A stretch of DNA of 63,425 nt, counting the filler, from Blastocystis sp. subtype 4 (taxonomy: Eukaryota): the NCBI RefSeq assembly GCF_000743755.1. It is 32 parts of 32 records of this genome, joined end to end, with 100 filler letters (N's around TTAATTAATTAA, not from the genome) between each part and the next. Parts side by side here need not be neighbours in the genome. Positions count along the whole stretch, not along the records: positions 38,042 to 39,851 come from NW_014568786.1; 31 more parts are not named here. One strand, 5' to 3'. The stretch's first letter is position 1, and every line of letters starts with the position of its first letter. A program made the translations under genes and the position numbers. The notes beneath the pieces were generated by a model. The model was not told the origin of the DNA. It was given only the letters and a program-made list of their open reading frames with translations, and ran no database searches. Below, one piece after another: positions 368 to 59,035 of the stretch.

Positions 368-536
368 CTTCTATATAAACACCATCATAATTATCAAACT
401 TTTTCATTATGGGTTCATTACAATTTGTTTTTCTCAATTTGATCTTTGATCAAATGTTTGCTCTGCAAATCTCCATCTAAACCTGTTTATTTTACTAGAA
501 ACATGTTATGATCCTTTTGTTTTGTAAAAGTAAGGT

Positions 537-598
537 ATTTTTCCTCCATATAGTAAAGATGAATGCAATTTTTCCTCCATATAGTAAAGATGAATGCA
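537..598 (+). repeat. Exact 31-bp tandem duplication spanning an ORF start
   Basis: ATTTTTCCTCCATATAGTAAAGATGAATGCA occurs twice (537-567, 568-598). Confidence 0.9.
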
Positions 599-826
599 AT
601 TGGTGCAATCCCTATTGAGAATCGTTTCACATTGGAATCCGATATGGTCAATTACCTTAATCAGCATGATGGTTATTTCCGCGTGTATCGATATTTCACA
701 ACCAAAGTAAATGATGAAGCTATAACATTCCTCAAGAAAAGCAATTTGGTGACAGATATTGTCCATACAATCAGCCTACAACAAATGGATGGATATGTAA
801 AACACTATTTGATTGAGCGGTTGTAG
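590..826 (+). CDS. Small intronless hypothetical protein (putative viral-element ORF)
   Basis: ORF MNAIGAIPIENRF... preceded by TAGTAAAG-ATG, resembling other element start contexts. Confidence 0.4.
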   Translation: MNAIGAIPIENRFTLESDMVNYLNQHDGYFRVYRYFTTKVNDEAITFLKKSNLVTDIVHTISLQQMDGYVKHYLIERL

Positions 827-897: not shown

Positions 898-1898
898 TTA
901 ATCTACGATTAAACTGAATAATGCCTTGTTTAAACTTCCTGTACAACAAGATAACAAGGTACAAATCTTTTGAGTACTTTTGAGTACTATCCCAATATCC
1001 GATGAAAGGGTTATTGAGAAGGATACATATGCATTTGTGGGTTTGAAAATGGTATCAAATGTCAATCTAACTGCTTCATCTTGAAGTGTTTGTGTAACAG
1101 TGAATACATCAGTTCCTGACAGTGTTAATGTGTATTGAGCATTTTCAGTCACAGCAGTATCCTGTAGATAGCCATTCAGATGGAAAGTGAGTCTATAGGT
1201 CTTTCCAATGGTGACAGTAGGGATTTGAGTTGGATTGATACTAGTGAATACTCCATAATTATCACTTGTTATGTTGATTGGTTTGTGAATATGTTTGAAT
1301 CACTTTGCACTTGCATTTCTACACAGAATGCCTGTTTCGCAGCATCTTGATGTTCAGACCATGTGTATGTGCCATTATTGTTGTTAAGGAGATAGTTTCC
1401 ATTGGTTGGAGGAAGAATGATACTTCTTGCACTTCCTTGATTGTATGTAACGATTTGATTCTTGGATGAATCTAAGTTCCAACAATGACGCATGATATTA
1501 TTTGCATTCATTGATACCCAATTCCATCCTTGTGAATCTTTCTGTAAATACCAAGAACCAGTTCCTGGGAGTTTCATTGAAGAAACAGATGTTCCATTCC
1601 AAAGAGGAAACACTGGTTGATTTGTTGTACCGTCTATTGAGAATATATCAGTGAATATATTGTCAGAAGTTAGCTTTGTGAATGTGTTGTTAGTACTAAC
1701 ATTGAGAATATAGATGCCTTTTGTAGAAGGGAGATTGATAGGTGAGAAAGTGGTATCGGATGTGAAATAAGGAATGGTACCAGATGAAGTAACAGTAATG
1801 GGATTGCCTGTAGCTGTGCGAAAGAATGATGAATCGATATGATCAATTCCAGCAGCAGCTGCATCTGCTTGTACAAGGGAATATCCAGATCCATCATA
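898..1898 (-). pseudogene. Fibre/spike-like T/S/N/G-rich protein, 5'-truncated, one frameshift near 1290
   Basis: Open frame from contig edge (YDGSGYSLVQADAAAAG...VFPLWNGTSVSS...LPPTNGNYLLNNNNGTYTW) continues after a frameshift as KPINITSDNYGVF...TENAQYTLTLSG; no introns. Fibre-like call rests on composition only. Confidence 0.45.
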
Positions 1899-2384: not shown

Positions 2385-2537
2385 GTGTGTTCGTTTAGTG
2401 ATTTGAACATGCCAGGAGTTCGTATGAGTGATTTGCGTTCGGTTCAGTTTGATGTGCGTGATCGTCATGGTGAAGTAGTATCAATCGCTTCTGACATCTA
2501 CATCAACATCCGTTTGAGTGTGAACGGAAAGGTTTAA
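2385..2537 (+). pseudogene. C-terminal fragment of penton (minor capsid)-like protein
   Basis: Translates VCSFSDLNMPGVRMSDLRSVQFDVRDRHGEVVSIASDIYINIRLSVNGKV*; homologous copies near 47835, 58425 and 34240(-). Confidence 0.6.
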
Positions 2538-2569: not shown

Positions 2570-3270
2570 TATTCACTTTGGTTGATTCACTTTGTGAAAA
2601 TGCAAAATCTATGATTTTGGTGTAGTAGGGTGTAGTAGGTAGTGTAGTAGCTTACAAAGAAGTAGGCTACTACACTAAAAAGCCCATAAACTGGCTCATT
2701 TATGGGGATATTCTTTTTATTTATGAGGGTTTAACTGACTTATTTATGAAGGTGTAGTAGGTGTAGTAGGTGTAGTAGCCTGTTTTTCAATTCGCCAAAA
2801 CTTTTTGGAGGCTACTACACTACTACACTACTACATCCTCATAACAAGTCAGTAAAACCCTCATAACAAGTCAGTAAAACCCTCATAACAATAATCAAAT
2901 CCTCATAAATGAGCCATTTTATGAGGGATTAAGTGTAGTAGCCTACTTCTTTGTAAGACACTTCACTTTTCACAATAATCACAAAATCTCATTATTGATG
3001 ATAAAATAAAATCTTCTTGATAATAATCATGATTATGTTTATTCACTTTGATTGATTCACAAAATAGTGAATGAAAATCTATGATTTGGTGTAGTAGGGT
3101 GTAGTAGGTAGTGTAGTAGGTTACAAAGAAGTAGACTACTACACTTAAACCCTCATAAACTGGCTCATTTATGGGATATTCTTTTTATTTATAAGGGTTT
3201 AAGTGACTTATTTATGAGGGTGTAGTAGGTGTAGTAGCCTGTTTTTCAATTTTGCAAAGATTTTTGGTAG
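2570..3270. repeat. TGTAGTAG-rich direct/inverted repeat array (A - inverted A' - A)
   Basis: Perfect 26-bp inverted repeat 2651-2676 / 2932-2957; unit ~2570-2810 repeated directly at ~3040-3265; related copy at 48049-48232. Confidence 0.9.
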
Positions 3271-3680
3271 AATTAAGTAGTAGTGTTTTGACGCATGTTA
3301 CATATTTTTATTATCCAGACAAACCGTCGCAAACATGGGCCTCCAACCCTGGGTAGCTATACAGGGTTAACCCTACCAGACAAAATCGCCACGAAAATGC
3401 AGACAAAAAGGCCCATAAACAAGCTCGAAAAGGCAGACATTTTGATCATAATTTGGAAACATATCCAACCCATTTCAAGTCAAATCATGGGCAACAATCA
3501 AGCACAAAATAATTGACACACGTTAACAATGGCTTACAATGGTCAGCAACCCTACCAGCAATATGGGACAATAATTTTGCCGTTGATTTACCTTACATTA
3601 TTAACAATGGTCAACAATGGCTAACAGTGACAGACAAAGTGAAGAACATATATTTTGTTGTTAATTCTTTCTAGCAATAA

Positions 3681-3908
3681 ATGCATTATTCAATAATCAT
3701 TCAAGGTAAACCATCAAATGGATCATTCACATGGGATAATCCTTACCGTTTTAAAAATCCATACATTACTATGATGAAGGTACTATTAACGCCTACTTCT
3801 ACCGCACTATTTTCAAACATTGATCAAACCAATACTGTATCTAATGGTAAAGGAGAATCTGTAGTATTTGAGAAAGGATATTATACTCTAGCTGAGATAA
3901 TCGCTATC
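3681..3908 (+). CDS. N-terminal part of penton (minor capsid)-like protein, 3'-truncated
   Basis: SFTWDNPYRF..MKVLL..FSNIDQTNT...VVFEKGYYTLAEII matches the N-terminal pattern of Polinton/adintovirus pentons; TAAATG start context. Confidence 0.55.
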
Positions 3909-7882: not shown

Positions 7883-7982
7883 NNNNNNNNNNNNNNNNNN
7901 NNNNNNNNNNNNNNNNNNNNNNNNNNTTAATTAATTAANNNNNNNNNNNNNNNNNNNNNNNNNNNNNNNNNNNNNNNNNNNN

Positions 7983-8893: not shown

Positions 8894-9449
8894 GTAGAAC
8901 AAATTCCAACAATCACAATACAGAAGTACTATGTTCTGATGAAGTCTCCATTACTATATGATATAATTATCATAGCTAGTCAACTAACTACTGAACATGC
9001 ATGACTATACTTGTTCATTGCATTAAACACCTCATTACCATTTTCCGATCGAACATGGTTATTCTTAGTCTATAACAGATTTCATTTGATTTAATAACTT
9101 GGATTTCGTAGTCTCATAATTGAAATGAGATAAGCTTAGAAAAGAGAAGATGGATTAAGGCATCATGTGATGTAGTCCAATAGTGTTCTTAATCAAGTTG
9201 TAATAGTATCCCTGCAAATTTGCTATCATGAAATCATTAAAGCGAGAATTAAGAACACTTTAAGGAAAGGAGTTAGATTTCATGAGTTCTTCCCAGTATG
9301 AATACTTTTAGTCTTCCAAATGATCCTTTCTATGTGAATGCCAGATTAGTAATGAGAATCATGATGTCTTGAACAGTGGAATTGAACAATTCCCGTGGGA
9401 TTCATTCATCCTTTTACCATCTTCAAAGTGGCGGTAATGTTTGCTAACA

Positions 9450-9834
9450 TGAGTATGTTTTCCGATATCGTATGATTTCCTTTCTGTTGCTATATTTGAT
9501 ACTAATCCTTTCAAGTTTCTTTCTTTTGTTTGTTTGAGTGTAGTTGGTGACAGTACGTCTATTTCATGTGGATCGAAGACAAATGTGATGACAGTTGGAG
9601 TTTATAACAGTTTCTCTTGCAATTCTACCTGTTCCCGTTTTTCAGCTACTCCTGCTTTGCCTGCTGGTATTCTTTTTGCAAATGACACAATTTATGGAAC
9701 TCCTGTTGAGACCTCTTTGTTAATCACGTATACTTTTAGTTGTTCTAGAGATTATGGTACATTCTCTCTTGGAGGTGATAGTTGTGTTTTGTTCTCATTC
9801 GTAGTTCTTGGATATCCTACTGAGTTGAGTGCTG
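9450..9834 (+). CDS. Putative Ig (He_PIG-like) repeat protein, N-terminal fragment
   Basis: PALPAGI...IYGTP motif; short intron-like interruptions. Confidence 0.5.
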
Positions 9835-15697: not shown

Positions 15698-15797
15698 NNN
15701 NNNNNNNNNNNNNNNNNNNNNNNNNNNNNNNNNNNNNNNNNTTAATTAATTAANNNNNNNNNNNNNNNNNNNNNNNNNNNNNNNNNNNNNNNNNNNN

Positions 15798-16437
15798 ACA
15801 GATTCAGACTTCAACAGTAACGAGTCCAGTGACATTCCTTCAATCTGGAAGTAACACGATTGCTATTGCCATTGTTGCTATTGCTGACAGTTACACTACA
15901 TCCTATTTCGATACAATGGTTCGTTTGATGTCTTCAGAACAATCTGAATCTCATATCTGGGAATATACTGCTACAATGAGTGGGATAACAGGATCTGTGT
16001 CCAATCCTTTCGATATGTATCATGGAACTAACATCCACTATTCATTCTGTACTTCCAATTCTCTGACTTTGACTCTATCAAACAATCGTCGTGAATGGAT
16101 CAGTTCTGTTCAGATTCAGAACTATTACTCAACAACATACAGCAATAACAAGGCAACACAATTCAAATTGTATGGTCATAACTTGGGAACAGATGAATGG
16201 ACACTTCTGAAGGATGTATCAGGTTTGAAATATTCCACTCCTGGTCATAAGAATAAGATCTATATGGCAAATAACATTCCTTACAATCAATTCAAGTTTG
16301 AGAACTTTGGTACTGGTAATCCTTCTTCTTGTGATTGGTATGTTCAATCTCTGGATCTGTTTGCTGATAACACTTTGGTTGATATTCCTAACTTCACTTA
16401 TGATTCTTCAATCACTATTTTCAAGGATGTTGAATAA
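15798..16437 (+). CDS. Ig-like surface protein family internal fragment ending abruptly
   Basis: NNRREWISSV, YNQFKFENF; ORF stops at FKDVE* where a dispersed non-coding module begins. Confidence 0.65.
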
Positions 16438-16479
16438 GCGGAACACCATTATTATTGCATCCAATCAAAATGCATCAGT

Positions 16480-16760
16480 TATAACTGAATCAAATCGCGT
16501 TTTTATTGACATATAAGAATAAGCTATCTTCCGTGTTTCTATCCAGTTATATGAATAGCAAAATTAGCGCATATTTCTAGTCACACATTTTGCGGTTATT
16601 CGTCACTCCGTTTACTGTACCATCTTTAGTGTCAGAAAGTTTGTTTTACTTTGTTCACGCTTACTTAACCATTTTGCACTCCTTCTTTTGGTATCAGCTC
16701 AGGGAGGTGTGGCACCAAGCACTGTACCCTCCACAGAGCACGTAGCGCCTCAGATCTCGA
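16480..16760 (+). mobile_element. Conserved non-coding module (putative element end), copy 1
   Basis: Homologous to 48255-48540 and 58740-59035 (ATCTTCCGTGTTTCTATCCAGTT; TTGCGGTT(A/G)TTCGTCAC); GC-rich hairpin-like end. Confidence 0.6.
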
Positions 16761-17649
16761 TGAATTGTAATGAATTGTCGTAGAAACAGTCAATCATTTG
16801 TCTTTGAGATGTGGATCCAATAGAACAAGGAATGATAAGACGACTGCCAGAAATATGAACTAAATATTGATTCCAAATGGTTTGTTATATCACTGTTAAC
16901 AGATCTAGACATTGACTTATCTGAATTGTGTGTTTTCAACCAATCATCATTTCTGACCTTGGAAGTGAAATGCGGAATCTAGAATCGAAATTAGCATCAA
17001 TAACTCAACAGTTTGGTTGATATCATCATTGAGAACAACGATTCCATAGGTTCATTGGTTCATAATTATTATATTCATTTGATCACTAAACAGGTCTTTT
17101 CCGTCTATTGAGCAGCTTATGCACAATTTGATTGGTTTGAAACCAATTATCCAATAGGAAACGATAGATTATTGGTTGATAACCATACCTTCAGTTCTTC
17201 GAAGCTTCTATTCTTGTTTTGTGAGATGAATGAGAATTGAGTTGAATAAGAGAAAGGCATGTTCCGTATTTAGAAGGGAATATTGTTTATCCCATTCTGT
17301 TTATCTAAGAGTTGATGTGAATTGGTTGTTTGTTTGAATTCATAATCAGTCAAACCAAATTGATGTAAATGACACATTATTAAGGAAATTGGATGCAACA
17401 ACAATCTCTGATTCTAATTGAATAGTTCTAGTGATGAATATCACATGCATCAGAAACAGAGTTCATTATCAATAGAATCTAGTTATTTCTCAGGATATCT
17501 AATTCAGTGGATAATTCTGAATAGCTTGTTCTTTCGGTCTTTTACTATTCCTCTTTTGGAAATGTCAATTGCTGTTGCATAACAAGCAATCTATTTCGCT
17601 ATTTGCCTTTGATTCTATTAGAACTCTATTGGAGATGTAACTACCCTTA

Positions 17650-18972
17650 TAACATGTTGATCATCATTTTTCTATTTGATGAAAGTTTTGCTATTATTCT
17701 CACTTCTATGTATTGTCCTTATGTTCTTGTACTAATGTCTAGTGTCAATAAGTGTTGCTGTTAATTGCGCTAGTTCTGAAGTGAAGTTCACTAAGAAGAC
17801 CCTGACTCTGGCAAGTCAAGAGTCGTTCAAGATTCTTTCTGGCTCTCAAGTCCTCTACACATCTCCTTCTTTGACAAACAATCAGGAGCGAGTTCTTGAG
17901 GTTTGTCTTCAACAGACTACGAACAATCAATACACTCTTGGAATGTATGATACTGTCTCCTATTGGGCAAATGGTGCTTGGCTGATGATTGAAGGAATCA
18001 ATGGAAATCGTGTGTTCAAGGGAATGGTAACATCAAGTAAGACACAAAGTAAGACACAGCAGCAGCCTTTGTCTCTGTATTCTCCTATCAACAAGGATGA
18101 TACTTGGAAGTACACTGCTACTCCTTCAGGAAACTGGAAGGATGTGAGTTATTCGGATGCTGGTTGGCGGATGCTGGTTGGACTGATGTTACTCTTGAAA
18201 TCTCCCCAATTCAAGCTACAGGAACTCAGTACTTCCGTAAGTCGTTTGCTGGATTGAGTGGAATGGCTGCTATTGAATTCCAACTCAGGTATCGTTATTA
18301 TATCAATGGAAATGAAGTGTATCGTGATAACATGGCTGATGGAGAACCAACGAGTTCTACACTTGCTACTGGAAGTTACATGGTTTATGATTATCATGGA
18401 GTGATTCGTCCTTCCACTATTGCTGAGAGTTCTTCAAGTGTGTTGGCTGTTGAAGTCCATTTCCTATCAACTGACTATTCAGAACTCATTCAATTCAATG
18501 GATTCCTCGCTTTCTATGCTGGTATTAGTACATCTGGTATTAGTACATCAGATCTCTGTTTTGTTGTTCCAAATGATGTAACAGCAACTGGTACTAGTTT
18601 TACGACTCCTGCGAATGCTTTCTCCTGGACATATTCCTCTTCAGCCTATTTCACAAGTACCTACACTTCTGGAACTCTGACTGCTGAGTATCAGGGTGCT
18701 TCTCTTCCAATGGTGAATTCTGTTCGTATCTGGCCTTATACTAGTACTACTACTCATGTTGTTCATTTCCTGGTTGAAAGAGCTGCTTCTTCATCAGGCC
18801 CTTGGACTTCTATCTTGGAGACAGATGGAGGCACTTACACTTCAAGTCAATGGAAACAATGGAATTCTTTAGCACCTTCTCCTCGTTCTTCATTGTTCCG
18901 ATTGACTGCATACAAGAGAGGAACAGGATCAACTTATGTGAATGAACTTCAGTATCTTGTTTGTAATCGTGC
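17650..18972 (+). pseudogene. Ig-like surface protein family member, frameshifted by a short duplication
   Basis: Family motifs; GGATGCTGGTTGG duplicated at ~18155-18181 shifts the frame. Confidence 0.7.
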
Positions 18973-19072
18973 NNNNNNNNNNNNNNNNNNNNNNNNNNNN
19001 NNNNNNNNNNNNNNNNTTAATTAATTAANNNNNNNNNNNNNNNNNNNNNNNNNNNNNNNNNNNNNNNNNNNN

Positions 19073-20440
19073 AATGAAGAGTTGGATCCAGTGGAAGTGA
19101 GTTGCCAACGATAATGAGGAAAGCCAGCAAGAGCAAGAGGAATGAGAGTGGAAATGGATTGTGTTTGAGTGAGATTGAGAAGGAGAATGGGTTGGTCCTG
19201 GGGATTATTGAAGCCATGAATGGAGAAGCCCCAAGAAGAGGAATCAGATCTGAGAAGATGGAATGAGTTCCATTTGCTTCCTTCGAGATTGTCAACAGTC
19301 CAATCAATATGAGTTTGAGGAGTGTTTGGATACCAAGTCATGAAGAAGGGATCTGAGATGTGAGAAGGAGTGAGTTGAGGATTGGAAAGAGAGAGTGAAG
19401 AATAAGAATCAAGGAGAATGGAACAAGTATCAACTCCATATACTCCAGCAGCATCAAATACAACAGGTTGAGTATCAGGAGTATTGAAAGGACGATGAAT
19501 CTCAAATGCAATGAGATTGAGTCTTGAAGAGTGGATAGAATGATATGGAAGTGAGATGGAAGAGAAGCATCATGAATGAGAATGGACTCAGTTTCTTGAT
19601 CAAAGTACTGAGCGATATTGAATCGAGCAACTCGATGAGCATTGAAGTAGACAACGACTCCTCCAGTGTATTTGAGTTTGACATTGAGGACTTGATAGAG
19701 ATTGAGAGAAGGAATGGAGAAGGACTTGCGGATGAAAGTGGTGATGAATGAAGTGGGAGGAATAGCAGATGGTTGAAGTGAGTTCCATGAGGAGTCATCA
19801 AAGGAGAGTGAGTTCCAGTGATGAGGGCATCATTCTGAAGGACCTTCCATTGAGTGAGTTCCATTTGGAATGGAATGTTTGTAGAGAAGACATAAGTGAA
19901 TGAGTTATCAATGAATTGAATTCCCGTTCCTATCTCAATATCATTGATTGTGATAGAGAAGTCATAGAGTGTAGAAGAGTCATGATTGGATTTCATAGAG
20001 TTGTTGTAGAGGTGATTGAGTTGGAATGAATAGATGGTTTGATTGAGACAGAGATCAATGAAATGATATCCAGAGACAACAAGGAAGGGATCTGAAGATG
20101 CAATGAGAGTGGATTGTGGATTGAGATTGGAATAGATTCCATGATAGAGATTGATAGGATTGAGAATGAAATCGAAGAGTGATGAGACCTTGAACAAGAG
20201 TACAAGTTTGAACAGAGAGTGAGAAGGAGATGGTTGTGTTTCCTCCAGTGATTCTAGTTGCAGAGATGGAGAATTGAAGAGGAGTGGTGATATTGATGAA
20301 TGATCCAATGATCCAACCATCATTAGGATCGAAATGGAGAAGGAGTAATAGAGAAATGATAGTATCCAAGAGTGGGAGGAGAAGGATGATTGAGAATGGA
20401 AGTGGAATAGAGAGTGAGAGATTGAATGGTCCATGAACAA
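19073..20440 (-). pseudogene. Degenerate Ig-like surface protein family member
   Basis: NLEGSKWNSF, VARFN-like and FEIHR motifs in shifting frames. Confidence 0.55.
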
Positions 20441-21511
20441 TGAGGATCTATCATATCAGCTCACACAATGCATACTACCGAACATCTCTTCGATAAGAAA
20501 CATATTACTTGAATTGACTTATTATATGGATGCATACAATGGATTGTAATCAAAACAGTTATTACAGTAGTCATAATCCATCAATGAGTTAGAGAGGATG
20601 TGCGTTCAGTAGTATATAGTGTAAGCTAATGATTAAGGATTATTAATAATTGAGATAGAAGATAAGACTGTAGAAAAAATGATTTGAAAAAGTGATTTCC
20701 ATTACTATCTATTGAGTGAATATGGGAATGGATTGAGAAATGAGAATAGAGATGATTCCCGCGGTATGAATAAGTGAAATGAAATAAGCCAATAAGTCAT
20801 AATAACATAGAAAGAATGATTGAAAATAAGAATATGAGTGTAGATAATGTTGAATCAATATCAAAGAAGATGAATGGAGTAGAATGGAGAATGAAGTGGA
20901 AAGAGTACTTGAAAGAGAGTGTANNNNNNNNNNNNNNNNNNNNNNNNNNNNNNNNNNNNNNNNNNNNTTAATTAATTAANNNNNNNNNNNNNNNNNNNNN
21001 NNNNNNNNNNNNNNNNNNNNNNNTTCTAATAAACCAATATTCCATTTCATACTATCATTTCTTTCATCTTCAACACTTAGTATCATTCTTCTCTCATTCT
21101 ATTGTCAATAGAATCTCATCAACTATCTATTCATCTCTTTCAATCATTTCTGTTGATTCTATCTATTTCTGCTGTTACAATGAATCTGTGATAACTGATA
21201 GAATGATAACTGTCCATTTCATTGATACCAGATCAAAGAACTCTTATTCAACGATTCTCTCATCTTCTATTCAATTTGAGAATCATGAATAGAACAAACA
21301 AGAAGAGTCGAATCACAAATGAATCCTCCTCTCATTGAACTACAAATGCGAATAGGAAGAGGATTGATTAAAGGATTCTGTATCATATCAAAATGGATTG
21401 TTTCAGAATAGAGAATAAAGAATCATATTGCTTTCACTATCAATCCAAGAAAGAAACCTCATAATTGCTTTCATTCAAACAACAGTATTCAATATCACTA
21501 CTATTACTCAT

Positions 21512-22710
21512 TCAAAGACTAGATTCATTCAATCTCTTTTTGACACTTTCATTAATCCTATATTCATTCACTGCTTGTACTGATACTTTCCTCTTCCAGT
21601 GAACAAAGAACATATCAGTTGTGTAATTCACTTTAATCATTGATGCTCCAGTCACCATATGAACTTGAACAAATGGTACTCTTAGAGGATTCACAATCAT
21701 CTTTTGTCTCATTGTAGTGATGATTGGACCCACTTTATTACAAATGGATTCAATATCCAATGTATTATTGAAATCCCATTGTCTACAAGCAACAAATGCA
21801 CTATTCACTTGAAAAGAATCAGCATTTGGATATAATTGATCATATTGTTTAACTACATCGATTACTCTCATTTCTGGATTGATAGGCATAAAGAACTCAT
21901 CAACATCATTGAAGATCACAAACTTGGATACTCTTCTATATCGACGATTACATGATGATAATGCCACTTGTTGTTCAAGAAAAGATAAATGATGAATATA
22001 TGAGAACTCTAGAAGAGAAAGAACACCGATTTCAATGTATTCATGAAGTTGATCCTTCCAATAAGAATACAGATCATTGGCATAGATTATGTTCAATACC
22101 ATTAGCAAGATGATATTCCATCCATGATCGTACCAATGATAAAGGAACTGATGATATGGATGTACAATAGATAATACATTGGTTGTTCTGGTTTAGGAGC
22201 ATAGGGTGCAACAAAGACATACGAATCAGTCACATTTGGTATCTTGATGGAAAACTCAGAATCTCTTGAAGAACAGGATGAATTGAATACAAATGAGGAG
22301 AGAATGACATGTTTGTGATGATCTCGTCCAATTGAATTATCAACTGTTTCTCCATGGAAGCAGAGATTGGATTATTCAAGAACTGTTGTTTATCTGATGA
22401 TAAGTATCGAAGATTAAACACTGCATCCAGATGAAAATGATTATTCTCACAATAGGTGAAAGAATCCATCAGAATGGGTATTTGTCTTTCAGAGGCATTA
22501 GACACTTGATAATAATAAGTAGATGGTAATGATCTATCTGAATGCCATCAATAATCGAAGTGAGAAATGAATGGTATTAATGGAACTATCCACTCTATGT
22601 TGAATTCCTCTTAAGAGAATACCGAGAATATGAGAATAAGTAGTGAAGTAGGAATAATGAGAGAACAAGCAATAGCATTGAATGAGAATAAACACAGTGA
22701 CAATAGTTCA
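21512..22710 (-). CDS. GT92/DUF23-like glycosyltransferase, spliced
   Basis: QQVALSSC, VIFNDVDEFFMP, KMIVNP..VHM motifs; N-terminal TM segment. Confidence 0.65.
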
Positions 22711-22969
22711 TTTGGAAAGTATTCCTTTCTAATGAATATCACATATGTGATTATTCTATCTCATTGATCAAAGATGCCATTCAACTCAATCTCATCAATA
22801 CCACAAACATCACCATTCCTATTAACAATCCACATACTACAATCAATTTCAATAATCATATTCAACTCCNNNNNNNNNNNNNNNNNNNNNNNNNNNNNNN
22901 NNNNNNNNNNNNNTTAATTAATTAANNNNNNNNNNNNNNNNNNNNNNNNNNNNNNNNNNNNNNNNNNNN

Positions 22970-26795: not shown

Positions 26796-27429
26796 NNNNN
26801 NNNNNNNNNNNNNNNNNNNNNNNNNNNNNNNNNNNNNNNTTAATTAATTAANNNNNNNNNNNNNNNNNNNNNNNNNNNNNNNNNNNNNNNNNNNNATAAA
26901 GAATTGGTCTGTTTATGTGGATCTAAACATTGTAATGGAAGAATGAATTATCCTGTTTATTAGACAAATCACACATATTTCAGTTCTCTAAATTGCAGCA
27001 TTATCAAATGAGCTAAAGCCATCATATTCAAGTACGAGGCGTGTCATATCTTTCACCTTTTTTATTATGACAGTTGTAAATGATTACAGTGTATATAAAC
27101 ATCTTTATCAATATGGTAATGTAAATGGCATAGCTAACAAGTTGTGGGGCAAAACATTTGGGTGGAGGTAATGATAACACAGCTAGATTCAACACCTTTT
27201 TGCTGGTTTATACTAATTACATAGTCTTGCACATAATTCACAAAGATCCACGATACTATTCCTAATTCTTTTTTCTTACCAGATAGCTGTTCGAATTGTT
27301 GATTTGTTCAAGGTAATAGTATATCGTTGATACCGGTTTAACTTGGTTACACCGCCCATTCATGCATTTATACTTTCAATCTATGCAACTGATGAGTATA
27401 TCACAATCCATTAATGGATTTGTCAAATG

Positions 27430-28729
27430 AGGGTTTCATATTTTAATGGTGGTGAAGTGTATCGGAGACAACATGGTTGATGGAACACCAACAAGTAACA
27501 CTGCAGCTACAGGAATCGCTACAGTCTATGGCTATCATTGAGTGATTCGTTCTGCTAATGATGTTACCATATCGCATGTGTTGGGTGTTGAAGTCCATCC
27601 TGTGGATCTTGCAACTACTGTGTCCATCAGTTTTATGGATTTCCCATGTTCATGGCTGGTTTGAGTTCAACAAATGGATGCTTTATCGTTTCCAATGATA
27701 TGACTGTTTCAACAACGGGATTTCCAAGTCCGGATTACTCTCTATCGTTACAAGAAACACTTCAGTTTATCTCTTCTCCTCTTGCTAACTTTCGAGATTT
27801 CAGAATCTATTCTTTTTTCCATTTCTTTCCTTATGTAGCCTTATAAGTCCTACCTCAAGTACTAGTAGTTTTTCGGTTGAAGATGCGACGTCAACATCAT
27901 CTAGTTGGCAGACTGTTCTCTCAATTTCTGAACAAACTTATGAACCAAGTACATGGGCTCAATGGGATTTAGTGAGTGTACTTCCCAAGTATCCTTTAAT
28001 GCGATTCAATGGTCAATCATCGCAGTCTGAAAGTGTGTATGTTTATGAGCTCCAGTTTCTTGCTTGTAATTGTGCTCCTTCTACCAGTAAATCCTATCCT
28101 CAAACTCAGTATTCCTACTACAGTACTTATGAACAAGTGAGTATTACACCAATAGTGTTGGTTTCTATGGTTGTAGTATGCCTCCTGGCATTCTTTCAGG
28201 TGTGACAATGGATGCCAATACCTGTACCATTTCTGGAGTATCAACTGTTGCCTCTCTATCGACATCCTATCAGATTACATCAACAATGGGAACAGCTCCA
28301 CTTCCGACATCAAAGGGTATTACATTCACTGAGTGTTCTGGAACATTCTATAAGATTGTTCGAACTTACAAGACCAGTCCTCAGAATGAGTATTTCAGAA
28401 TTCGTGATACATCAAATGATAACATTGTGTATGAGATTCAATCAGGCCATTCTCATCCTACCAGTGAAGATTGGACTCATTATCTCTGTCTCAATGTTGA
28501 TCGATTTGATGTCACCTTTGATTCCACATCTACCTATTGGTCATCTGGTTCATATTATTACATGTATTCTATGTTGCCTGATGGTGAAGAAGAGATAGTT
28601 CTGAAAGGACGATATGATGCCAATCAAGATAATGTTCATAATGTGTATGTTCGTCGTCCTTCTATCAATCATTCAGAACAATGGTATTATAAGATGGGTG
28701 AAGTGCCTACCAATTGGTTTGGTGATGAT
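27430..28729 (+). pseudogene. Ig-like surface protein family pseudogene
   Basis: Family motifs (EVYR.NM, VEVH, VYELQFLACN, HSEQWYYK) broken by frameshifts and stops. Confidence 0.7.
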
Positions 28730-34239: not shown

Positions 34240-34397
34240 GTTGAATATGTTAACTGGATGTGATGTAGATGCCAGAAATGATTGACACCATTTCATCATG
34301 ACGATCATTCACATCAACTGACCCAAACGCAAATCATTCATAGGAACTACTGAGATGTTCAAATGACTAAACAAAGCACACATTGTTCAATCTCATT
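34240..34397 (-). pseudogene. Decayed penton-like C-terminal fragment
   Basis: Reverse complement aligns to 2385-2520 and 58415-58550 (TTTAGTCATTTGAACAT, GATCGTCATG, CATCTACATCA). Confidence 0.6.
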
Positions 34398-37439: not shown

Positions 37440-37941
37440 TTGTTGTTGATTGTAGTATCAATCATCTCATTCTATTCTTTACATTCTGTTTCATTCTTCA
37501 TTCTACTCTCATTTCTAGTTATCCTTTCTTACTCTATTCAATGTTCATCTAATCAAGATTATGTTAAGATCACTAAGAAAACTGGTAATTATCCTAGTCA
37601 AGAGTCATTTGAGATTGTATCTGGATCATCTACTCTATTCACTTCTCCTTCATGTGTTTATAGTAATCAACAATATGTGTATGAAGTCTGTTTGAATGCT
37701 TCTTCTAATCATATCTACACTCTTATCATGAAAGATTCAGCTAGTGGGGGATGGTGGTATGATGGATTTATCTCAATGAATGATATCAATGATAATACTA
37801 TCTTCAAGAACATCATGAGAGAGGGTGTTAGTGAAGAGAGTAATCAATTTGCTCTCTATTCTCCTATCAATAAGAATGATACTTGGAGATACAGTGATAG
37901 TTATCATTCTCTTTGGAATACCAATTCATTCAATGATAATC
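37440..37941 (+). CDS. Ig-like surface protein family, N-terminal fragment
   Basis: Close paralog of 6790-7250 (CSSNQDYVKITK, ESFEIVSGSS). Confidence 0.7.
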
Positions 37942-38041: not shown

Positions 38042-39274
38042 ACAGTTCCTGCAGGAACTCAATTCACATTCATCAGACAAGAAGAAGAAGAATCAGGTGT
38101 TGAACCACATGTGTTTACCTTAACTCAAAGTTCTACGTGTACAAATGGTGGAGCTTCCTCTGGATTACTTAGTCAAATCAGAGGGTTGATTGGTAGTTAC
38201 TATAATAACATTGGTGGTGATTTTGCATTCACTTCATTTCTGATTTATGGTAAAGCTCATTGTTCATCTATTCGAGCTGGAGGATCTTATGGTGTTTTCA
38301 AGTTTGGAAGAGCAGGAGAAGGAAGTCCTGAATTGTTGGATTATGTAACACTACCAGAAACATTCCTTTCTTCAGAATGGTATGTATTCAACAAAGTGAA
38401 TCCCACATTCACACTTCCTAAAGGATACTATACTCAAGAAGAGGAATGTTCATATGTCAAATCAAGTGTTGAATCTTTGAATGTGTGGGGTACAGTGATT
38501 AATAAACCATGTTGGAGTACTGTATTAGAAAGAAGGATTCAAAGGAATACAGGTGCTACATGCTGTTCATTGACATCTCATAATCCATTGTGGTTAGTGT
38601 ATGAAGTTAACAATCAAATATTCAATACTGGATTATATACAAGTCTAAATCTTCATTTCATAGATCCAAATGAAGATATCAAGATGAATGTTAATCAACT
38701 TGAATACACAGGACCAGATGGGACATCTTGGATGGTTGGATTCACATCTCAACCTACTACACAAGAAGATTGTGTTGAACAGATGAATGCGATGTTTGCA
38801 AGCAAGGGATTAGCGATCTCATGGAAGAAACAAGAAACATGTTACTCAATTGTAGCTGATGAACCATTCAAACTTGGTGGATCATTCTTCTCAAATAGTC
38901 TATTGAAATCAATCAAACCAGGACATAACCAGACATCCCAAGTATGGACATGGAATTACTACAATGATGCTGTTTATGAGATTAGTGGATATGAAACCAT
39001 TATGTCAAAGAAGGTTATCAACATCACAAATAGTAAGGAAGTGGCAAAGGTGTATTGTGATCTTGTGAAGAGTTATCATAGTTGTGATTGTTTGTTGACA
39101 AATCTTCATATTGTGGATTTGAAGAAGAACTACAGTTCATCACTGGAGTTGATTCCTATCAAAACATCCTTCAGAACAATCTCTGTAAAGGTAAGAGATC
39201 TAGATGATAAGGATTATTCATTTGCAGGAACCATCTATTTGAACATGTTGATATCATCTCTTCAACAGGATTGA
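38042..39274 (+). CDS. Large intronless penton (minor capsid)-like protein with insertion domain, 5'-truncated
   Basis: FTLPKGYYT and C-terminal INIT..KVYCDLV..LLTNL..IPIK..RTISVKVRDLDDKDYSFAGTIYLNMLI, the pattern of Polinton/adintovirus pentons. Confidence 0.65.
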   Translation, partial: TVPAGTQFTFIRQEEEESGVEPHVFTLTQSSTCTNGGASSGLLSQIRGLIGSYYNNIGGDFAFTSFLIYGKAHCSSIRAGGSYGVFKFGRAGEGSPELLDYVTLPETFLSSEWYVFNKVNPTFTLPKGYYTQEEECSYVKSSVESLNVWGTVINKPCWSTVLERRIQRNTGATCCSLTSHNPLWLVYEVNNQIFNTGLYTSLNLHFIDPNEDIKMNVNQLEYTGPDGTSWMVGFTSQPTTQEDCVEQMNAMFASKGLAISWKKQETCYSIVADEPFKLGGSFFSNSLLKSIKPGHNQTSQVWTWNYYNDAVYEISGYETIMSKKVINITNSKEVAKVYCDLVKSYHSCDCLLTNLHIVDLKKNYSSSLELIPIKTSFRTISVKVRDLDDKDYSFAGTIYLNMLISSLQQD

Positions 39275-39370
39275 AGCTTTGCTAATTCATTTTACTACAA
39301 GAACATAATGTTCTTCTTTTCTACGTAGTAGAAATTAGCTTTGCTAATTCATTTTACTTGTAGTAAAATG
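39275..39370. promoter_or_regulatory. Intergenic direct and inverted repeats ending at an ATG
   Basis: 22-bp direct repeat 39275-39296/39337-39358; CATTTTACTACAA (39288-39300) is the reverse complement of TTGTAGTAAAATG (39358-39370). Confidence 0.6.
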
Positions 39371-39851
39371 CTATTCAGTACAAACAATGATAAAGCAATA
39401 TCAATCAATGATCCAGAAGCTGTGTATAAGAAGATTTCAGATCCAAGTTGGAAGGCACTATTCAACACAATTCAATCGAATGGTTGGCTGGGCAAACTGA
39501 TTTCTTCTATGATCATGCGATAGATAGTGATGTGATTGTAGCTGTTCAACAACCTGTTAACAATGCCAAAGTGGTTGGTATACTGGAAGGATATACAGCG
39601 ACAAATCACACATTTTCAGATAGAGACAATGATCTGAAAGATGATAATGGATTTGTGCATGAAAGTGAAGCATTAATCCAGTGTCTAACAGAGAACAATC
39701 TACTTGATCAACAACTCCAAGTGTTCCACAAAGTGAATAAGGATCATCCACATCGAATTGTATGGTCTAATGATCAGATAACTGAGAAGATATTCTATGC
39801 ATCTGATTATCACTTCAAGGAATGTTATTATGTCATTGTGAATGATACTCA
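39368..39851 (+). pseudogene. Intronless hypothetical element gene, one frameshift, 3'-truncated
   Basis: MLFSTNNDK... shifts near 39490 into TDFFYDHAIDSDVIV... Confidence 0.45.
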
Positions 39852-40301: not shown

Positions 40302-41366
40302 TTAACTCCTCTTACAAGGAAATCCATTTGTATCAACAGAGGAACAGTGAAAAAGCCTCTCTCCTTGATTCTCCAGCAAGTCAGCAAACTGAATCACACT
40401 TATAAACTCAGTAGGCAATCCCTCTTTCCCTACATATGCACCTAAAATGTTACCACAGACTGCTGCTACGGAGTCGCTGTCTCCACTGTGATTGACACAT
40501 GCACACAAGGCCTCTTTAACATTTGTTCTATAACGCAGACAGCAATACAATGCTATCGCTAGATTTTCATCCGCTCTCCAACCCAGTCCCAACTTCTTGA
40601 TATCCATATAAGGATCCTCTTGAGGAGTTTCGCTCAATTCTACTCCCCTTTTCAGAACAGTGTAGAGGGGCAGACCATCAGGTTGTGTAAGAAGATATTG
40701 AAAGCAATGATCGATTGCAGGTTTCATTTCCTCACCTTGTAATAATAGAGCGATAAGCATGCACATAACTCCAGCAGATAAATAGGCAGAACTATGACCA
40801 TGGGTTAATGCAGCACAATCTCGACCTAACAGAAAAGCAAGTTTGGGATTCTTATAGCAATAGATCCCTATCGGAGCTGATCGCATGATTGTACCACATC
40901 GTACTCCCTCCGGTGCGGGATGATTAACTGAATACATTTCACCACTTAACAGAGCAGCAAAGGTTGAACCACCACGACACATTCGTTTATCAATTCCATT
41001 ATATTCTAACAATTCATTCTTTTCCAATTCTTCTTTTAAATACATGTTTTCATACAAGGAAACGACATTCTCGTTCACTAAGGAGTTAATCCAACGCAAA
41101 TAAGATTTATGTACTTCTTGAACTGTTTCCAAATAGTTACATCCCTTTTCATATGCATGTAATAACCCCTGTGCAGTATAGATTGTCATCTGTGTATCGT
41201 CTGTGATTAACGAAATTCCATCTGTAGTTTCCATGTGATCAAGTCCCTTCTCACCATAGATTTTCACAATCGTTGAATACGACTTATGCTCCACAGGGTA
41301 ACCTAGAGCATCACCACAAGCTCCTCCAAGTAGCGATCCAATGATTCGTGACTGAACTGTGGGCAT
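40302..41366 (-). CDS. ADP-ribosylglycohydrolase family protein (intronless)
   Basis: GGACGDALGYPVE, TDDTQMT, MRSAP, THGH, VNHSGDSDS motifs. Confidence 0.93.
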   Translation of the reverse strand: MPTVQSRIIGSLLGGACGDALGYPVEHKSYSTIVKIYGEKGLDHMETTDGISLITDDTQMTIYTAQGLLHAYEKGCNYLETVQEVHKSYLRWINSLVNENVVSLYENMYLKEELEKNELLEYNGIDKRMCRGGSTFAALLSGEMYSVNHPAPEGVRCGTIMRSAPIGIYCYKNPKLAFLLGRDCAALTHGHSSAYLSAGVMCMLIALLLQGEEMKPAIDHCFQYLLTQPDGLPLYTVLKRGVELSETPQEDPYMDIKKLGLGWRADENLAIALYCCLRYRTNVKEALCACVNHSGDSDSVAAVCGNILGAYVGKEGLPTEFISVIQFADLLENQGERLFHCSSVDTNGFPCKRS

Positions 41367-41628
41367 TAAATGAAAGATTTAGAGAGTAAAACCAATTCCA
41401 ACAATAGCATCAATATGTGATTAAAATGTATTCTTTTCACTTTATGACTTCATAACCAGAGAAGAAATAGGCGAGAAGTATTGTGAGTAAATAGAACACT
41501 ACATCATGATAGTACACGAGATTAGCATTCTTAATCATCATTGAATTCTAGAAATCAATCAACTCATCCCCGTGGAACTAATGATACACCTTTGGAAGTC
41601 AAACAATTATTAGTATTCTATCACAATA

Positions 41629-41724: not shown

Positions 41725-42939
41725 NNNNNNNNNNNNNNNNNNNNNNNNNNNNNNNNNNNNNNNNNNNNTTAATTAATTAANNNNNNNNNNNNNNNNNNNN
41801 NNNNNNNNNNNNNNNNNNNNNNNNAAGTATGATGAGTTTGTTACAAACATGATTACTAAAAGAGATATCTATTGATTCACACAATAGTGAAATGATTATC
41901 ACAAGTATGTGAAGTGATATCGATCTTCACTACAACACTATTGATTGTCAAATCGATATCATCTGGAATGATATCAACTATATCATTCACTCAATCTGAT
42001 TCACCATCTGCTATCACAGTACTTATCACTTATTCACTTAATCGAATACAATTCTTCATCTTCATTCAAAGGCAAAATGCATCAATGAAGTCAGAACAGA
42101 GATGGCTGCTCTTACATTTCATTTCACTCATTCCTTGGATTTCTTCAATCTACTGCTGTTGATTCTAGATTATTGTATTTGTCTCTATCTTGTATTGAGT
42201 TCATGTATTCTCATCCCTCATGGATTGATCCAATCTGATCAAAGGAATGGTAATATGATGTTTCTGACACTTTGTCCATCCTCATCACCATTCCTAACTC
42301 CAATTCGGATGATATCTCCTTTTTGTTTGTTATCATATCAATAGAAGAATTGAACAATCTGAGGGAGGATCAATGAATGGAAGTTGTATGTGTTGAGATC
42401 ATTCTTTGAAGGGATTATCTCTACTCACATATACTATTCAATATCTTTACATACTATCATCTACTCTATGCATTTTGACATTGTTAGTGATTGTTTGTAA
42501 TCCTGTTATCATCATCATCTCATCTATATCCATCATTCCATTATCATTCCATCATTTTTGTACTTCATTCTATTATACAAATGTTGTTATGAGGTGGGAA
42601 ACAACAAATGATTCCATTTGTATTCTGAATATGATAGTCTCATCACCTCTTTAACTAATTACTTCCTACTACCACACCTTCTGTTATCATTCATCATAAT
42701 CTCTTCAGAAACAGTCATATTATCACTCAACTTGAGAATTCAAGATTCACAGATTATCCTTATTCATTATGTTGGTATCATACAATGAATCACATCATCA
42801 GTTGATTGTCTTATCTCAACTCTACACACAACAGAACAACACATTTAGTGGATAATCACTTACAGGTCTAGAAATCAATGATCTTTGTATTTCAACAAAC
42901 AAATGGACTAGACATAAGAACTTCGGCTTCGAATAAACG

Positions 42940-47649: not shown

Positions 47650-48012
47650 GGAGAAGTCTCATTTGTTCAAAACAAGATCATCAGTACTGGTGTGAAAGGA
47701 AAAGAATCAGTAGATGTATCAAATGGATTGAATTGTATTCGAATCTACAGTAATCTGGTAAAGCAAATGATATCATTTGAAACAAGTCCATTAGTAGATT
47801 GTATGATATATTCAACAATGGGATTGAACAATGTGTGTTCATTTAGTGATTTGAAGATGTGTGTAGTTCGTATGAGTGATTTGCATTGGTTTCAGTTTGA
47901 TGTGCATGATGGTGATGTTGAGTAGTATCAATCTCTTCAGACATCTACATCAACATCCTTCTAGTTGCATAGCAGCTGTGTAATCCCGATTAAACTAAAT
48001 GGGAAGGTTTAA
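47650..48012 (+). pseudogene. Penton-like C-terminal region, decayed
   Basis: VDVSNGLNCIRIYSNLVKQ...QFDVHD; homologous to 58194-58575. Confidence 0.6.
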
Positions 48013-48048
48013 TCAGTGATTCAAGTGTGTAAGATAGATAATCCACTT

Positions 48049-48232
48049 AGTGTAGTAGCTTACAAAGAAACAGGCTACTACACTAAAAGGCCATAAACTG
48101 GTTCATAAAGATTTGATTATGATTATAAGGGTTTACTGACTATATTATTTATGGAGTGGTAGCCTGTTTTTCATTCATTCAAAGTGTTTGTTGGAATTTC
48201 GGATAAGCTATTGTTTTGGAGGCTACTACACT
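48049..48232. repeat. TGTAGTAG palindromic repeat unit, second copy
   Basis: AGTGTAGTAGCTTACAAAGAA..GGCTACTACACT matches 2641-2676; unit bounded by AGTGTAGTAGC/GCTACTACACT. Confidence 0.85.
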
Positions 48233-48254
48233 GCAACAATCAACACAAGTCTAT

Positions 48255-48540
48255 ATTGTGGTCACATTACTGACACCAATCACGGTTTTGTCGATGCATT
48301 ACTAACAATCTATCTTCTTTGTTTTTATCCTATTATTATGTTGTGCAAATTAGGATATATTTTTATCACATAACTTGCGGTTGTTCGTCACCCCTTTAAC
48401 TGATCATCAATTAGTATCAGATTGTTGTTCACACTATTTGACCATGTACATAACTATTGATTCAATCATTTTGGTGTCAGTTTTTCAGGTCGAAGGTAAC
48501 CGAACTACAGAATCGGCTGTATTCGACCTGAAAAACACAT
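48255..48540 (+). mobile_element. Conserved non-coding module, copy 2, ending in a 15-bp-stem hairpin
   Basis: TTGCGGTTGTTCGTCACC core; inverted repeat GTTTTTCAGGTCGAA 48480-48494 / TTCGACCTGAAAAAC 48522-48536. Confidence 0.65.
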
Positions 48541-48629
48541 GGCTTCAGGCCTTTCATTCTCCATCTCTCCATTCTCAATACATCCTTTAACAATACGAAT
48601 TGGGATTAAGTACAGATAACAAACACTAT

Positions 48630-48980
48630 ATTCTGTAAACAAATGAGGATGACGAATTACAATCTTCTTCATATTCTCCTTTTGAGATTCAGAATACATT
48701 GTCATTGAATCATTCTTCACACCTGATTGTTTTGATGTGAATCTCTTGAAATGACCAACTCTCAAATCATCATAATGAAGGAAAAGGTGCTTCCCCCCAG
48801 AAAAGGTCCAATGAATAGTTACTATTCCATCAAATGATGAAAACACAACATTCTTCTTTCTATGGTCTCTGTCCACAAACACCTGGTAGGTGTATACATC
48901 GAATAGATCTCCTTTCACAAAGTGTTCTTCTCGATTCAAACAAGAATTGTTTCCATCTACCATAAACACATTCCACATCT
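48630..48980 (-). CDS. GT92-like protein, last exon (polyA-created stop predicted)
   Basis: KNVVFSS..TIH..LRVGHFK; paralog of 57739-58093. Confidence 0.5.
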
Positions 48981-57738: not shown

Positions 57739-58093
57739 TTAGATCATAAACAAATGTGGATGATGAGATACAATCTTCTTCATATTCTCCTTTTGAGATT
57801 CAGAATACATTGTCATTGAATCATTCTTCACACCTGATTGTTTTGATGTGAATCTCTTGAAGTGACCAACTCTCAAATCCTCATAATGAATGAAAGTATC
57901 TCTTCCTCCACAACATGCATAATGAACAGTGATAATTCCATCAAATGATGAAAACACAACATTCTTCCTTCTTTGAGTTTTGTAGAGAAACACCTGGTAG
58001 TTGTATACATCGAATAGATCTCCTTTCACAAAGTGTTCTTCTCGATTCAAACAAGAATTGTTTCCATCTACCATAAATATGTTTGACATCTAC
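57739..58093 (-). CDS. GT92-like protein, last exon
   Basis: Paralog of 48630-48980 with a genomic TAA. Confidence 0.5.
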
Positions 58094-58193: not shown

Positions 58194-58575
58194 ATCCTTC
58201 TGGTCCTGCTTATGATCTAGTATTTCAACAAGCACCTGATTTGCGTCGAATATTGGGATTTGATGAAATTCAGGCAAGTGGTGTTAAAGGAAAAGAACCA
58301 GTAGATGTATCAAATGGATTGAATTGTATTCGAATCTACAGTAATCTGATAAAGCAGATGATATCATTTGAAACAAGTCCATTAGTGGATTGTATGATTT
58401 ATTCAACAATGGGATTGAACAATATGTGTTCGTTTAGTCATTTGAACATGCCAGGAGTTTGTATGAGTGATTTGCGTTGGGTTCAGTTTGATGTGCATGA
58501 TCGTCATGGTGAAGTAGTATCAATCGCTCAGACATCTACATCAACATTCGGTTGAGTGTGAACGGAAAGGTTTAA
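58194..58575 (+). pseudogene. Penton-like C-terminal half, 1-bp frameshift near the end
   Basis: APDLRRILGF...PVDVSNGLNCIRIYSNLIK...QFDVHDRHGEVV. Confidence 0.65.
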
Positions 58576-58739
58576 GTTCTGTTTTACATAATCATGATTT
58601 TGTTAATGCACTTTTTATCTGTAAGTTGAGCAAGTGAATATGGTGAATTCACCAACGATTAATGGATTTCTCAAAGATCGACACCCAGACAATTCATCCT
58701 CCTTAACCTATTTGTTACCTCATAATATTCACCAATCGA

Positions 58740-59035
58740 ATTCGTGCTTACATTACTGATTCCATCCGCAGTTATAATGACACATTACTAATAACCATCT
58801 TCCGTGTTTCTATCCAGTTTTATAAACAACAAATTTGACTATATTTTTGGTCACACATTTGCGGTTGTTCGTCACCCTGTTAACTGTACTATCAATTAGG
58901 TCAGATGTTTGATTCTGCTTTGTTCACAGCCTTTGGACCATTTACATTACCATTTAGTTTCACCTTGTTGGCTTCAGCTCAAAGATGTGAAGTGCTTTGA
59001 GCCGCTGCCTCCGCAGAGCACACTGAGCTCAAGCC
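58740..59035 (+). mobile_element. Conserved non-coding module, copy 3
   Basis: Homologous to 16480-16760; hairpin GCTCAAAG..CTTTGAGC near 58977-59002. Confidence 0.6.

Follow-up and report, generated by a model that had tools for sequence, protein, structure and literature searches.

The open reading frame (ORF) at positions 38042-39274 of a 63,425-nucleotide stretch of DNA from Blastocystis sp. subtype 4 (ST4; GCF_000743755.1), referred to here as the window, is very probably the 3' end of a gene from an endogenous Polinton-like virus (PLV). The gene would encode a 1,124-amino-acid (aa) penton-like protein of the capsid vertex, and the virus has a predicted double-jelly-roll (DJR) major capsid protein (MCP), an integrase, a likely packaging ATPase and a likely primase-helicase. 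The window is made up of 32 contigs of ~1.7-3.3 kb with N-linkers between them, and the range 38042-39851 is contig 19. An earlier note on this DNA, made from the sequence alone, had read such ORFs as pieces of an integrated PLV with several penton paralogues, and this proposal is borne out by the DJR fold, the rve integrase, the linked ATPase and primase-helicase, and the copies on megabase-scale contigs of Blastocystis BT1. Direct support for the present reading comes from the gene content and its linkage, the capsid model, the megabase-scale host contig copies and several module junctions.

Genes linked to the ORF

The analysis covered eight human-gut-type metagenome contigs (L001-L008), sequencing runs (X1, X7, X8, X15 and X17) and database proteins (among them P0086 and P0346). 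Inside the window, a tblastn search with 17 element proteins gave no pPolB, ATPase, integrase, MCP or primase-helicase, in agreement with the earlier note, and Pfam matched nothing of substance on seven window ORFs. Beyond the window, a search for hallmark genes found MCP, ATPase, primase-helicase and integrase linked to the ORF in metagenome contigs, where the ORF itself is encoded in 8 of the 62 pattern matches. The MCP, a KilA-N protein, the integrase, the ATPase and the large penton-like gene lie together on L007 (10.6 kb), while the primase-helicase is supplied by L001 and L003 and the small penton-like gene by L002. Further linked genes are ORF190, ORF138, ORF108 and a fibre-like gene of 314 aa. 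Element DNA in these contigs is intron-free, with a coding density of 0.9 and 35% GC, and the blocks recovered sum to ~18-19 kb.

The 400-aa MCP candidate has 25 relatives among 1.84 billion representatives, and its AF2 model, built on a 20-sequence alignment, reached a pLDDT of 87.2 and a pTM of 0.88. PRD1 P3 occupies the top rows in Foldseek (2.8e-13), and Sputnik is found at 1.9e-11. In VIA-align, the model matches PBCV-1 (Z 19.7, rmsd 4.1, 313 residues aligned), faustovirus (Z 18.6), mavirus (Z 18.1, rmsd 4.2, 336 aligned) and Sputnik (Z 17.6, rmsd 4.0, 342 aligned), with the first non-capsid row at Z 7.5, and the match to double-jelly-roll capsids spans the entire length of the protein. 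Its Atlas features are at 0.96-0.97 to clusters in which Capsid_N is present on 15-17% of members. The best viral model match is an uncharacterised protein, A0A8S5L5M3 (TM 0.89, rmsd 2.7, 21% identity), whose source is given as 'MELD virus sp.'. On the strength of the model, the 400-aa protein is predicted with confidence to be a double-jelly-roll major capsid protein. The family has no match in Pfam, PHROG or PDB sequences. A wider family of ~400-aa capsid proteins (P0061-P0075, 17-45% identity) is present on contigs of up to 29 kb.

The integrase matches rve (PF00665) at 1e-9, above the cut-off, and KilA-N is matched at 2e-8 in the linked protein. The 1,013-aa protein is likely an AEP/SF3-type primase-helicase, as suggested by DUF5906 (1.3e-8, above the cut-off), a PHROG DNA primase match (1.3e-11) and AEP-like DxD and HxxH motifs recognised by eye. 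The ATPase carries, by eye, a Walker A motif (ASTASGKT), a Walker B motif (FIFDD) and GRH and FQ motifs, from which it is likely to be an A32 packaging ATPase. PDB searches by sequence gave nothing meaningful for the MCP profile, the penton profile, the ATPase or the primase-helicase. An adenovirus-like cysteine protease was not matched among the scanned proteins of the element, which is incomplete.

A TTAC-N(3-5)-GTAA motif lies within 25 nt of the ATG in 9 of 15 element genes (shuffles: mean 0.04, maximum 2 in 5000) and is likely to be a promoter. Sharing of this motif links the blocks of the capsid, integrase, ATPase and small penton-like genes to a single element. The motif occurs twice in the entire window; one occurrence, at 39354..39367 on the plus strand, precedes the start codon of ORF190 (39368..39851, plus strand), which follows the large penton-like gene, is matched by tblastn in two frames, is put out of frame by a 10-bp deletion near 39501 relative to L002 and is cut by the contig end. 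No copy of TGTTTGTT, the Blastocystis polyadenylation motif, lies in the first 70 nt past the 11 viral stop codons considered. L006 represents a second lineage of the element, ~80% identical, in which the large penton-like protein has 1,024 aa and lacks one module. At L008:2626-3380 the element stops abruptly and GC-richer, bacteria-like sequence lies beyond; L008 is probably a chimeric contig.

Penton-like proteins

The ORF on contig 19, which had been described as longer than 400 aa with LPKGYYT and a C-terminal KVYCDLV...LIPIK...ISVKVRD series, is indeed 410 aa long with these motifs in place and is open from the 5' contig edge to 39274. It corresponds on the plus strand to aa 715-1124 of P0346 with 99.8% identity, and the whole version, of 1,124 aa, is found in human-gut metagenome contigs. 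The penton call is supported in so far as it means penton-like paralogues, but the ORF is not an ordinary penton: it makes up the tail end of a larger protein, of 1,124 aa, in which there appear to be two penton-like domains. In pairwise comparison, the last 105 aa of the ORF are 24% identical to a small penton-like protein (E 0.001), which also gives a weak alignment to aa 1-240 of the large protein (domain 1; E 3.7e-5). In our reading, the large protein has two penton-like domains in succession: the first would be complete, and the two halves of the second would enclose several GxY-helix modules. The Atlas language-model features of the small protein are at 0.97 to viral clusters of 236-336 aa; among the Atlas clusters near it, DUF5901 is present on 14% of members and the Sputnik minor capsid protein V18-19 on 26%. 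Such features of the small paralogue, together with the weak pairwise similarity, make the penton identity of the ORF on contig 19 likely. Between L002 and L006, the large penton-like gene is under purifying selection, with dN/dS at 0.17-0.28; for the ATPase dN/dS is 0.06.

The small penton-like protein had been noted as a second protein in four copies. Four C-terminal fragments are present, whereas whole copies are not: all are broken, and there is one 227-aa gene, which is frameshifted in L002 and whole in P0086 (408 members). Its tblastn matches in the window are 58196-58572, 47671-47910, 2385-2534 and 34262-34396, none of them whole; ILGF is found in one of the four and IRIYSNL in two. The C-terminal fragment at 2385..2537 (plus strand) is 96% identical to aa 178-227 of P0086, and the decayed fragment at 34256..34397 (minus strand) retains 51% aa identity. 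At 47671..48240 (plus strand; tblastn) a decayed fragment is followed by a decayed A-type repeat (see below). The C-terminal half at 58194..58690 (plus strand; 95.9% nt identity to L002:122-506) has a frameshift near 58528 and is followed by a piece of a D-type region, 58619-58690 matching L004:6433-6508 in the D-type repeat region of L004. A decayed N-terminal fragment lies at 41918..42059 (minus strand; 82.8% nt identity to L002:663-807).

The ORF start at 3681 reads as it had been quoted and continues for 76 aa up to the contig end. It appears to be the start of a third penton-like paralogue (3681..3908, plus strand), which is 26% identical over 84 columns to aa 5-88 of the large protein (pairwise E 1e-4). 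This type is absent among the 76 database penton hits.

Copies in Blastocystis BT1

For Blastocystis BT1, which belongs to ST4, an assembly from long reads is available (PMC10690189). Cluster look-ups led to BT1 'hypothetical protein' entries for the capsid, integrase, ATPase, small penton-like protein, primase-helicase and five accessory proteins of the element, on contigs of 466, 485, 571, 816, 924 and 1,185 kb and on one of 8.8 kb. There are at least four MCP and at least six integrase accessions, these counts being lower bounds as up to 40 members per protein cluster were considered. Locus tags of element genes in BT1 are WA171_001059-001082, 002316-002343, 003720, about 003746-003749, 004739-004742 and 005162-005164. 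The presence of identical or near-identical proteins on six megabase-scale contigs indicates that the virus is endogenous. Judging from their numbering, BT1 locus tags 1059-1082 would constitute a tandem array in which two or more capsid-integrase blocks surround one ATPase-penton block. In four runs, the depth of element contigs relative to host-flank contigs is ~1-2 fold, which was not used as a copy number. The main text of the BT1 genome paper, in its accessible part, holds no passage on viruses or integrases (PMC10690189).

Repeats between gene blocks

Gene blocks of the element are set apart by arrays of ~250-350 bp, in which a short core is repeated in inverted orientation as iteron-like palindromes. 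Four cores are distinguished: A (GTGTAGTAG/CTACTACAC), B (GGAGTAG), C (CCCGTCAC) and D (ATCGACACCC). Full-length units hold 6-12 cores and exceed all 500 shuffles, whereas truncated units do not. The window contains A-type repeats at 2620..3290, consisting of one palindromic unit (inverted self-match 2641-2967) and a further half unit; in this region 2565-2808 directly matches 3035-3267, and 431 bp hold 11 copies of the core, against at most 6 in shuffles. After core removal the A and B scaffolds still align, none of 1000 shuffles scoring as high, and the C scaffold matches A on one strand (none of 300 shuffles). The D and E scaffolds have no significant alignment with A or B, although D is core-enriched all the same. 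Region E (3290-3680) was rejected as an iteron array, its core enrichment not being above that of shuffles.

The blocks are joined in more than one way. The orientation of the primase-helicase gene is inverted between L001 and L003; on a single contig of X1 it lies between inverted A repeats, and on a single contig of X8 it runs into a B repeat. In run X1 the B repeat is preceded by the integrase gene or by the small penton-like gene, both forms coexisting, and the capsid gene has an A array behind it. Three of four runs contain a joint that leads from B back to position 4300. Gene blocks are likely to reshuffle at short repeated DNA signals. The replicase also occurs in two C-terminal variants, whose identity is 98-100% as far as aa ~900 but 54-70% beyond it (3 of 14 other members). 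Long loose ends flank a 40-bp stretch of the primase-helicase linker (L001:11859-11899) in X1, X8 and X15, and may reflect an insertion allele or domain-swapped replicases. Some members of the primase-helicase cluster are split at this linker point into 334 and 683 aa.

Primase-helicases of staphylococcal SaPIs bind arrays directly downstream of their own gene via a C-terminal winged helix (PMC9371898), and for this reason the arrays of the element are read as putative replication origins.

One more kind of joint involves host DNA. At 22771..22869 (plus strand; 99% identical to L002:3328-3426 and L007:8607-8705), a piece of the large penton-like gene that codes for aa ~250-282 is joined to it, and the junction recurs in L001, L005 and run X7. 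Three left-hand junctions (L007:8607, L001:2948 and window 22771) fall at one base, at the border of the two domains of the large penton-like protein, and one of the three starts inside the small penton-like gene with a 6-base shared word. This base is a breakpoint hot spot.

Proposed cycle and points against it

The integrase would insert viral DNA into host chromosomes, often in tandem. The primase-helicase, in place of pPolB, would open the iteron-like palindromes as origins and copy the genome, which the ATPase would package into an icosahedral DJR capsid. Small and large penton-like proteins, two or three in all, would be located at the capsid vertices, and the large one would be two pentons in tandem, its repeated insertion modules making up a spike. 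Integration in tandem and recombination between shared repeat scaffolds would shuffle, invert and delete gene blocks, and recombination at repeats would leave decayed fragments such as those in the window.

Several results weigh against this reading. As to the penton-like proteins, Pfam, PHROG, NCBIfam and PDB sequences gave no supporting match for either of them, and the AF2 model of the 1,124-aa protein (nine close sequences) failed with a pLDDT of 31.7. Of its GxY insertion modules, only three of nine exceed all 200 shuffles, and the two modules within the ORF on contig 19 are matched or exceeded by 13 and 25 of 200 shuffles. As to the ATPase, Pfam gave generic P-loop families, the best being DEAD at 2.9e-5, below the cut-off, and its A32 label comes from the motifs of that family. 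Analogy is the sole basis for taking the arrays as origins. As to integration, no complete element, clean end or target-site duplication is present among the recovered sequences, and every host junction found cuts within a gene. The penton piece beside a host glycosyltransferase family 92 (GT92) gene is a multi-copy fragment of ~420 bp in X7, so that an assembly path may account for the continuity from host to whole element in L001 and L005. Some joints have a short side of 29-45 letters. The single RNA run, X17, reaches 16 of 30 bins with short contigs; non-coding-like junctions are among what it reaches, and the run may be of DNA. IMG/VR scans gave no relative; two repeat-pattern matches there were rejected as simple repeats in unrelated contigs of 214-353 kb.

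Comparison with known systems

The earlier note knew of no such element in Blastocystis. A PLV ('MELD' virus) had in fact been reported by Starrett et al. 2021 from Blastocystis hominis datasets, with pPolB, an integrase and unrecognisable virion proteins (PMC8502044), and has been named 'Blastocystis MELD virus 3996' (10.1101/2022.05.25.493380). The element resembles it, as described, in host genus, integrase and virion proteins unlike known sequences. They are set apart, going by the description, by the replicase, which is pPolB in the published virus and of AEP/SF3 primase-helicase type in the element, where pPolB was not found. Copies of the element are traced to megabase-scale chromosomal contigs of an ST4 strain; the source of the published Blastocystis virus genomes is called unclear in a 2026 review (PMC12835684). 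This review regards Blastocystis viruses as unconfirmed, and the evidence listed in its accessible part is limited to old micrographs plus a single data-mining report whose source is uncertain.

Close parallels are PLVs with AEP-SF3 replicases, for which tandem integration and repeat-bracketed replicases are described as common in Polisuviricotina (Barth, Ha and Aylward 2026, 10.64898/2026.10.13.758929). According to the part of this preprint that is accessible, they share with the element the DJR MCP and AEP-SF3 replicase, the minor capsid protein and packaging ATPase that are predicted for it, as well as tandem integration, repeats around the replicase and replicase domain swapping. In the element, however, repeats bound several blocks and not the replicase alone, their cores differ while the scaffold is related, and swapping is confined to the last ~90 aa of the replicase. 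Maverick/Polintons and Tlr share an rve integrase and DJR MCP with it, as well as an ATPase and the penton that is predicted for it; Polintons have pPolB and a protease, neither of which was found in the recovered element, whereas Tlr is without both, like the element as recovered, but has a superfamily 1 helicase (PMC4028283). Virophages (Maveriviricetes) share the DJR MCP fold and a penton-like protein, but are described as requiring a cysteine protease (PMC9952930), none of which was found in the recovered element, for which no helper giant virus is known. In structural alignment the capsid protein of the element is 8-9% identical to those of mavirus and Sputnik, and it has 400 aa against ~500 aa in their solved chains. 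Mavirus also has an integrase, in which it is like the element. SaPI Pri-Rep origins are similar in that a primase-SF3 helicase gene is followed by inverted short-repeat arrays around an AT-rich centre (PMC9371898), although SaPIs are bacterial satellites without their own capsid, and binding of the arrays in the element is proposed by analogy alone.

In the accessible parts of other sources, a 2026 PLV framework has MELDs spread across PLV groups with no mention of Blastocystis, an egovirus preprint reports no gene flux between egoviruses and Blastocystis, and ten assemblies of Blastocystis figure in the screen of Bellas et al. 2023. Apart from Starrett et al., no other Blastocystis virus of this kind was found in the literature searched, most subscription journals being outside it, and neither the primase-helicase element nor its chromosomal copies were found described, bioRxiv supplements being outside it. 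New here is a PLV integrated in the chromosomes of Blastocystis ST4, one that looks free of pPolB, has a penton-like protein of unusual size and is made up of blocks bounded by repeats.

Among the single-celled eukaryotes of the human gut Blastocystis is the commonest, and whether viruses occur in it is regarded as an open question (PMC12835684). The element is traced to a publicly deposited ST4 strain, and is therefore open to direct tests of excision, expression and particles. Hundreds of gut-metagenome contigs carry its proteins as unlabelled dark matter, and its repeat-bounded blocks are a concrete case for exchange of replication and capsid modules among these viruses. If PLVs of this kind protect their hosts against giant viruses, an unknown large Blastocystis virus would be implied.

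Alternative explanations

The shuffled blocks might instead belong to a multipartite or cassette virus, in which the repeat-bounded blocks, namely capsid-integrase, ATPase-penton, small penton and primase-helicase, each replicate and integrate alone from an iteron origin. This is improbable, and so is the form of it in which a domain at the C-terminus of the primase-helicase, open to swapping, sets the specificity for the origin, as it does in Rep proteins of staphylococcal SaPIs. The four different cores in inverted arrays and the two replicase C-terminal variants fit such a virus, as does the A array directly downstream of the primase-helicase, which is the SaPI origin layout (PMC9371898). 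Moreover, on the ~924-kb BT1 contig the MCP/integrase tags (4739-4742) are ~420 tags away from those of ATPase/ORF138 (5162-5164), and one BT1 primase-helicase sits on the 8.8-kb contig. On the other hand, tags 1059-1082 place blocks of both types, capsid-integrase and ATPase-penton, within a single tandem array, L006 has no B repeat between the small penton-like gene and the ATPase, the D and E scaffolds are not significantly aligned to A or B, and tandem integration with deletion, as described by Barth, Ha and Aylward, accounts for the same joints (10.64898/2026.10.13.758929). A still active virus in which repeat-bounded cassettes reassort via SaPI-like origins, with the last ~90 replicase residues swapped and the 1,124-aa protein as a double-penton spike, is likewise doubtful.

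The element could also be a Polinton-type virus like the published Blastocystis MELD virus, with pPolB in an unrecovered part and the primase-helicase as a mobile passenger. The closest capsid structure is that of the 'MELD virus sp.' protein, the published virus carries both pPolB and an integrase (PMC8502044), repeat-bracketed mobile replicases are on record (10.64898/2026.10.13.758929), and the recovered sequence excludes ~nine BT1 genes between the ATPase and the integrase (tags 1071-1079) and 3.9 kb of L007. Nevertheless, pPolB is absent from the ORFs of at least 90 aa in the eight loci and from the 21 Pfam-scanned proteins, with the element incomplete; the capsid identity to the MELD protein is low, as given above; and most members of the primase-helicase cluster are intact, with coverage of the gene in four of four runs, which makes this explanation unlikely.

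It is equally hard to regard the virus as extinct, with decaying fossils in the genome and varied junctions produced as assembly artefacts at repeats. All small penton copies in the window and ORF190 are broken, fragments make up most of the 76 penton hits, and short-read contigs break at repeats. However, intact versions of 1,124, 1,013, 434, 400, 335 and 227 aa recur across many contigs, three BT1 MCP copies are letter-identical, dN/dS points to purifying selection, and different junctions are found inside single contigs from unrelated studies. That the ORFs are ordinary genes of the host or come from a contaminating bacteriophage, as PRD1 P3 in the top Foldseek rows of the MCP might suggest, can hardly be reconciled with a DJR capsid and an rve integrase on megabase-scale Blastocystis contigs, nor with the lack of any match for the MCP or the small penton-like protein in 50,697 phage records and of any match in GTDB contigs.

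Other features of the window

Contig 1 (1-1899) and 22771-22869 are further pieces of the element described here, and were overlooked in the earlier note. In contig 1, a variant copy of the fibre-like gene with a frame break lies at 933..1898 on the minus strand (94.8% nt identity over 1,949 columns to L004; tblastn), and the small element ORF108b, with small deletions, lies at 508..823 on the plus strand (tblastn). The label 'fibre-like' is drawn from composition and position, and family scans of this gene gave no match at the cut-off. The viral fragment at 22771 is flanked by the non-viral host GT92 gene (21512..22700, minus strand); 21391-22869 is 96.8% identical to L001:1538-3046, and PF01697 is matched in L001:1659-2873 at 1.9e-17.

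An intron-free ORF of up to 157 aa is repeated at 48505-48978 and, as a copy, at 57739-58089; it is absent from all the metagenome loci, Pfam and PHROG gave no match for it, and one copy adjoins decayed element pieces. A non-coding repeat of ~200 bp (71-78% identity) occurs at 16481-16658, 48258-48458 and 58744-58954, and two of its copies adjoin element fragments. The intron-free ORF at 40302-41378 (minus strand) may encode an ADP-ribosylglycohydrolase, to judge from its motifs. Many fragments at 5980-9834, 13846-20923, 26896-28729 and 37440-37941 probably belong to a large family of host proteins that look secreted and rich in beta structure and would carry Ig-like and discoidin-like repeats.

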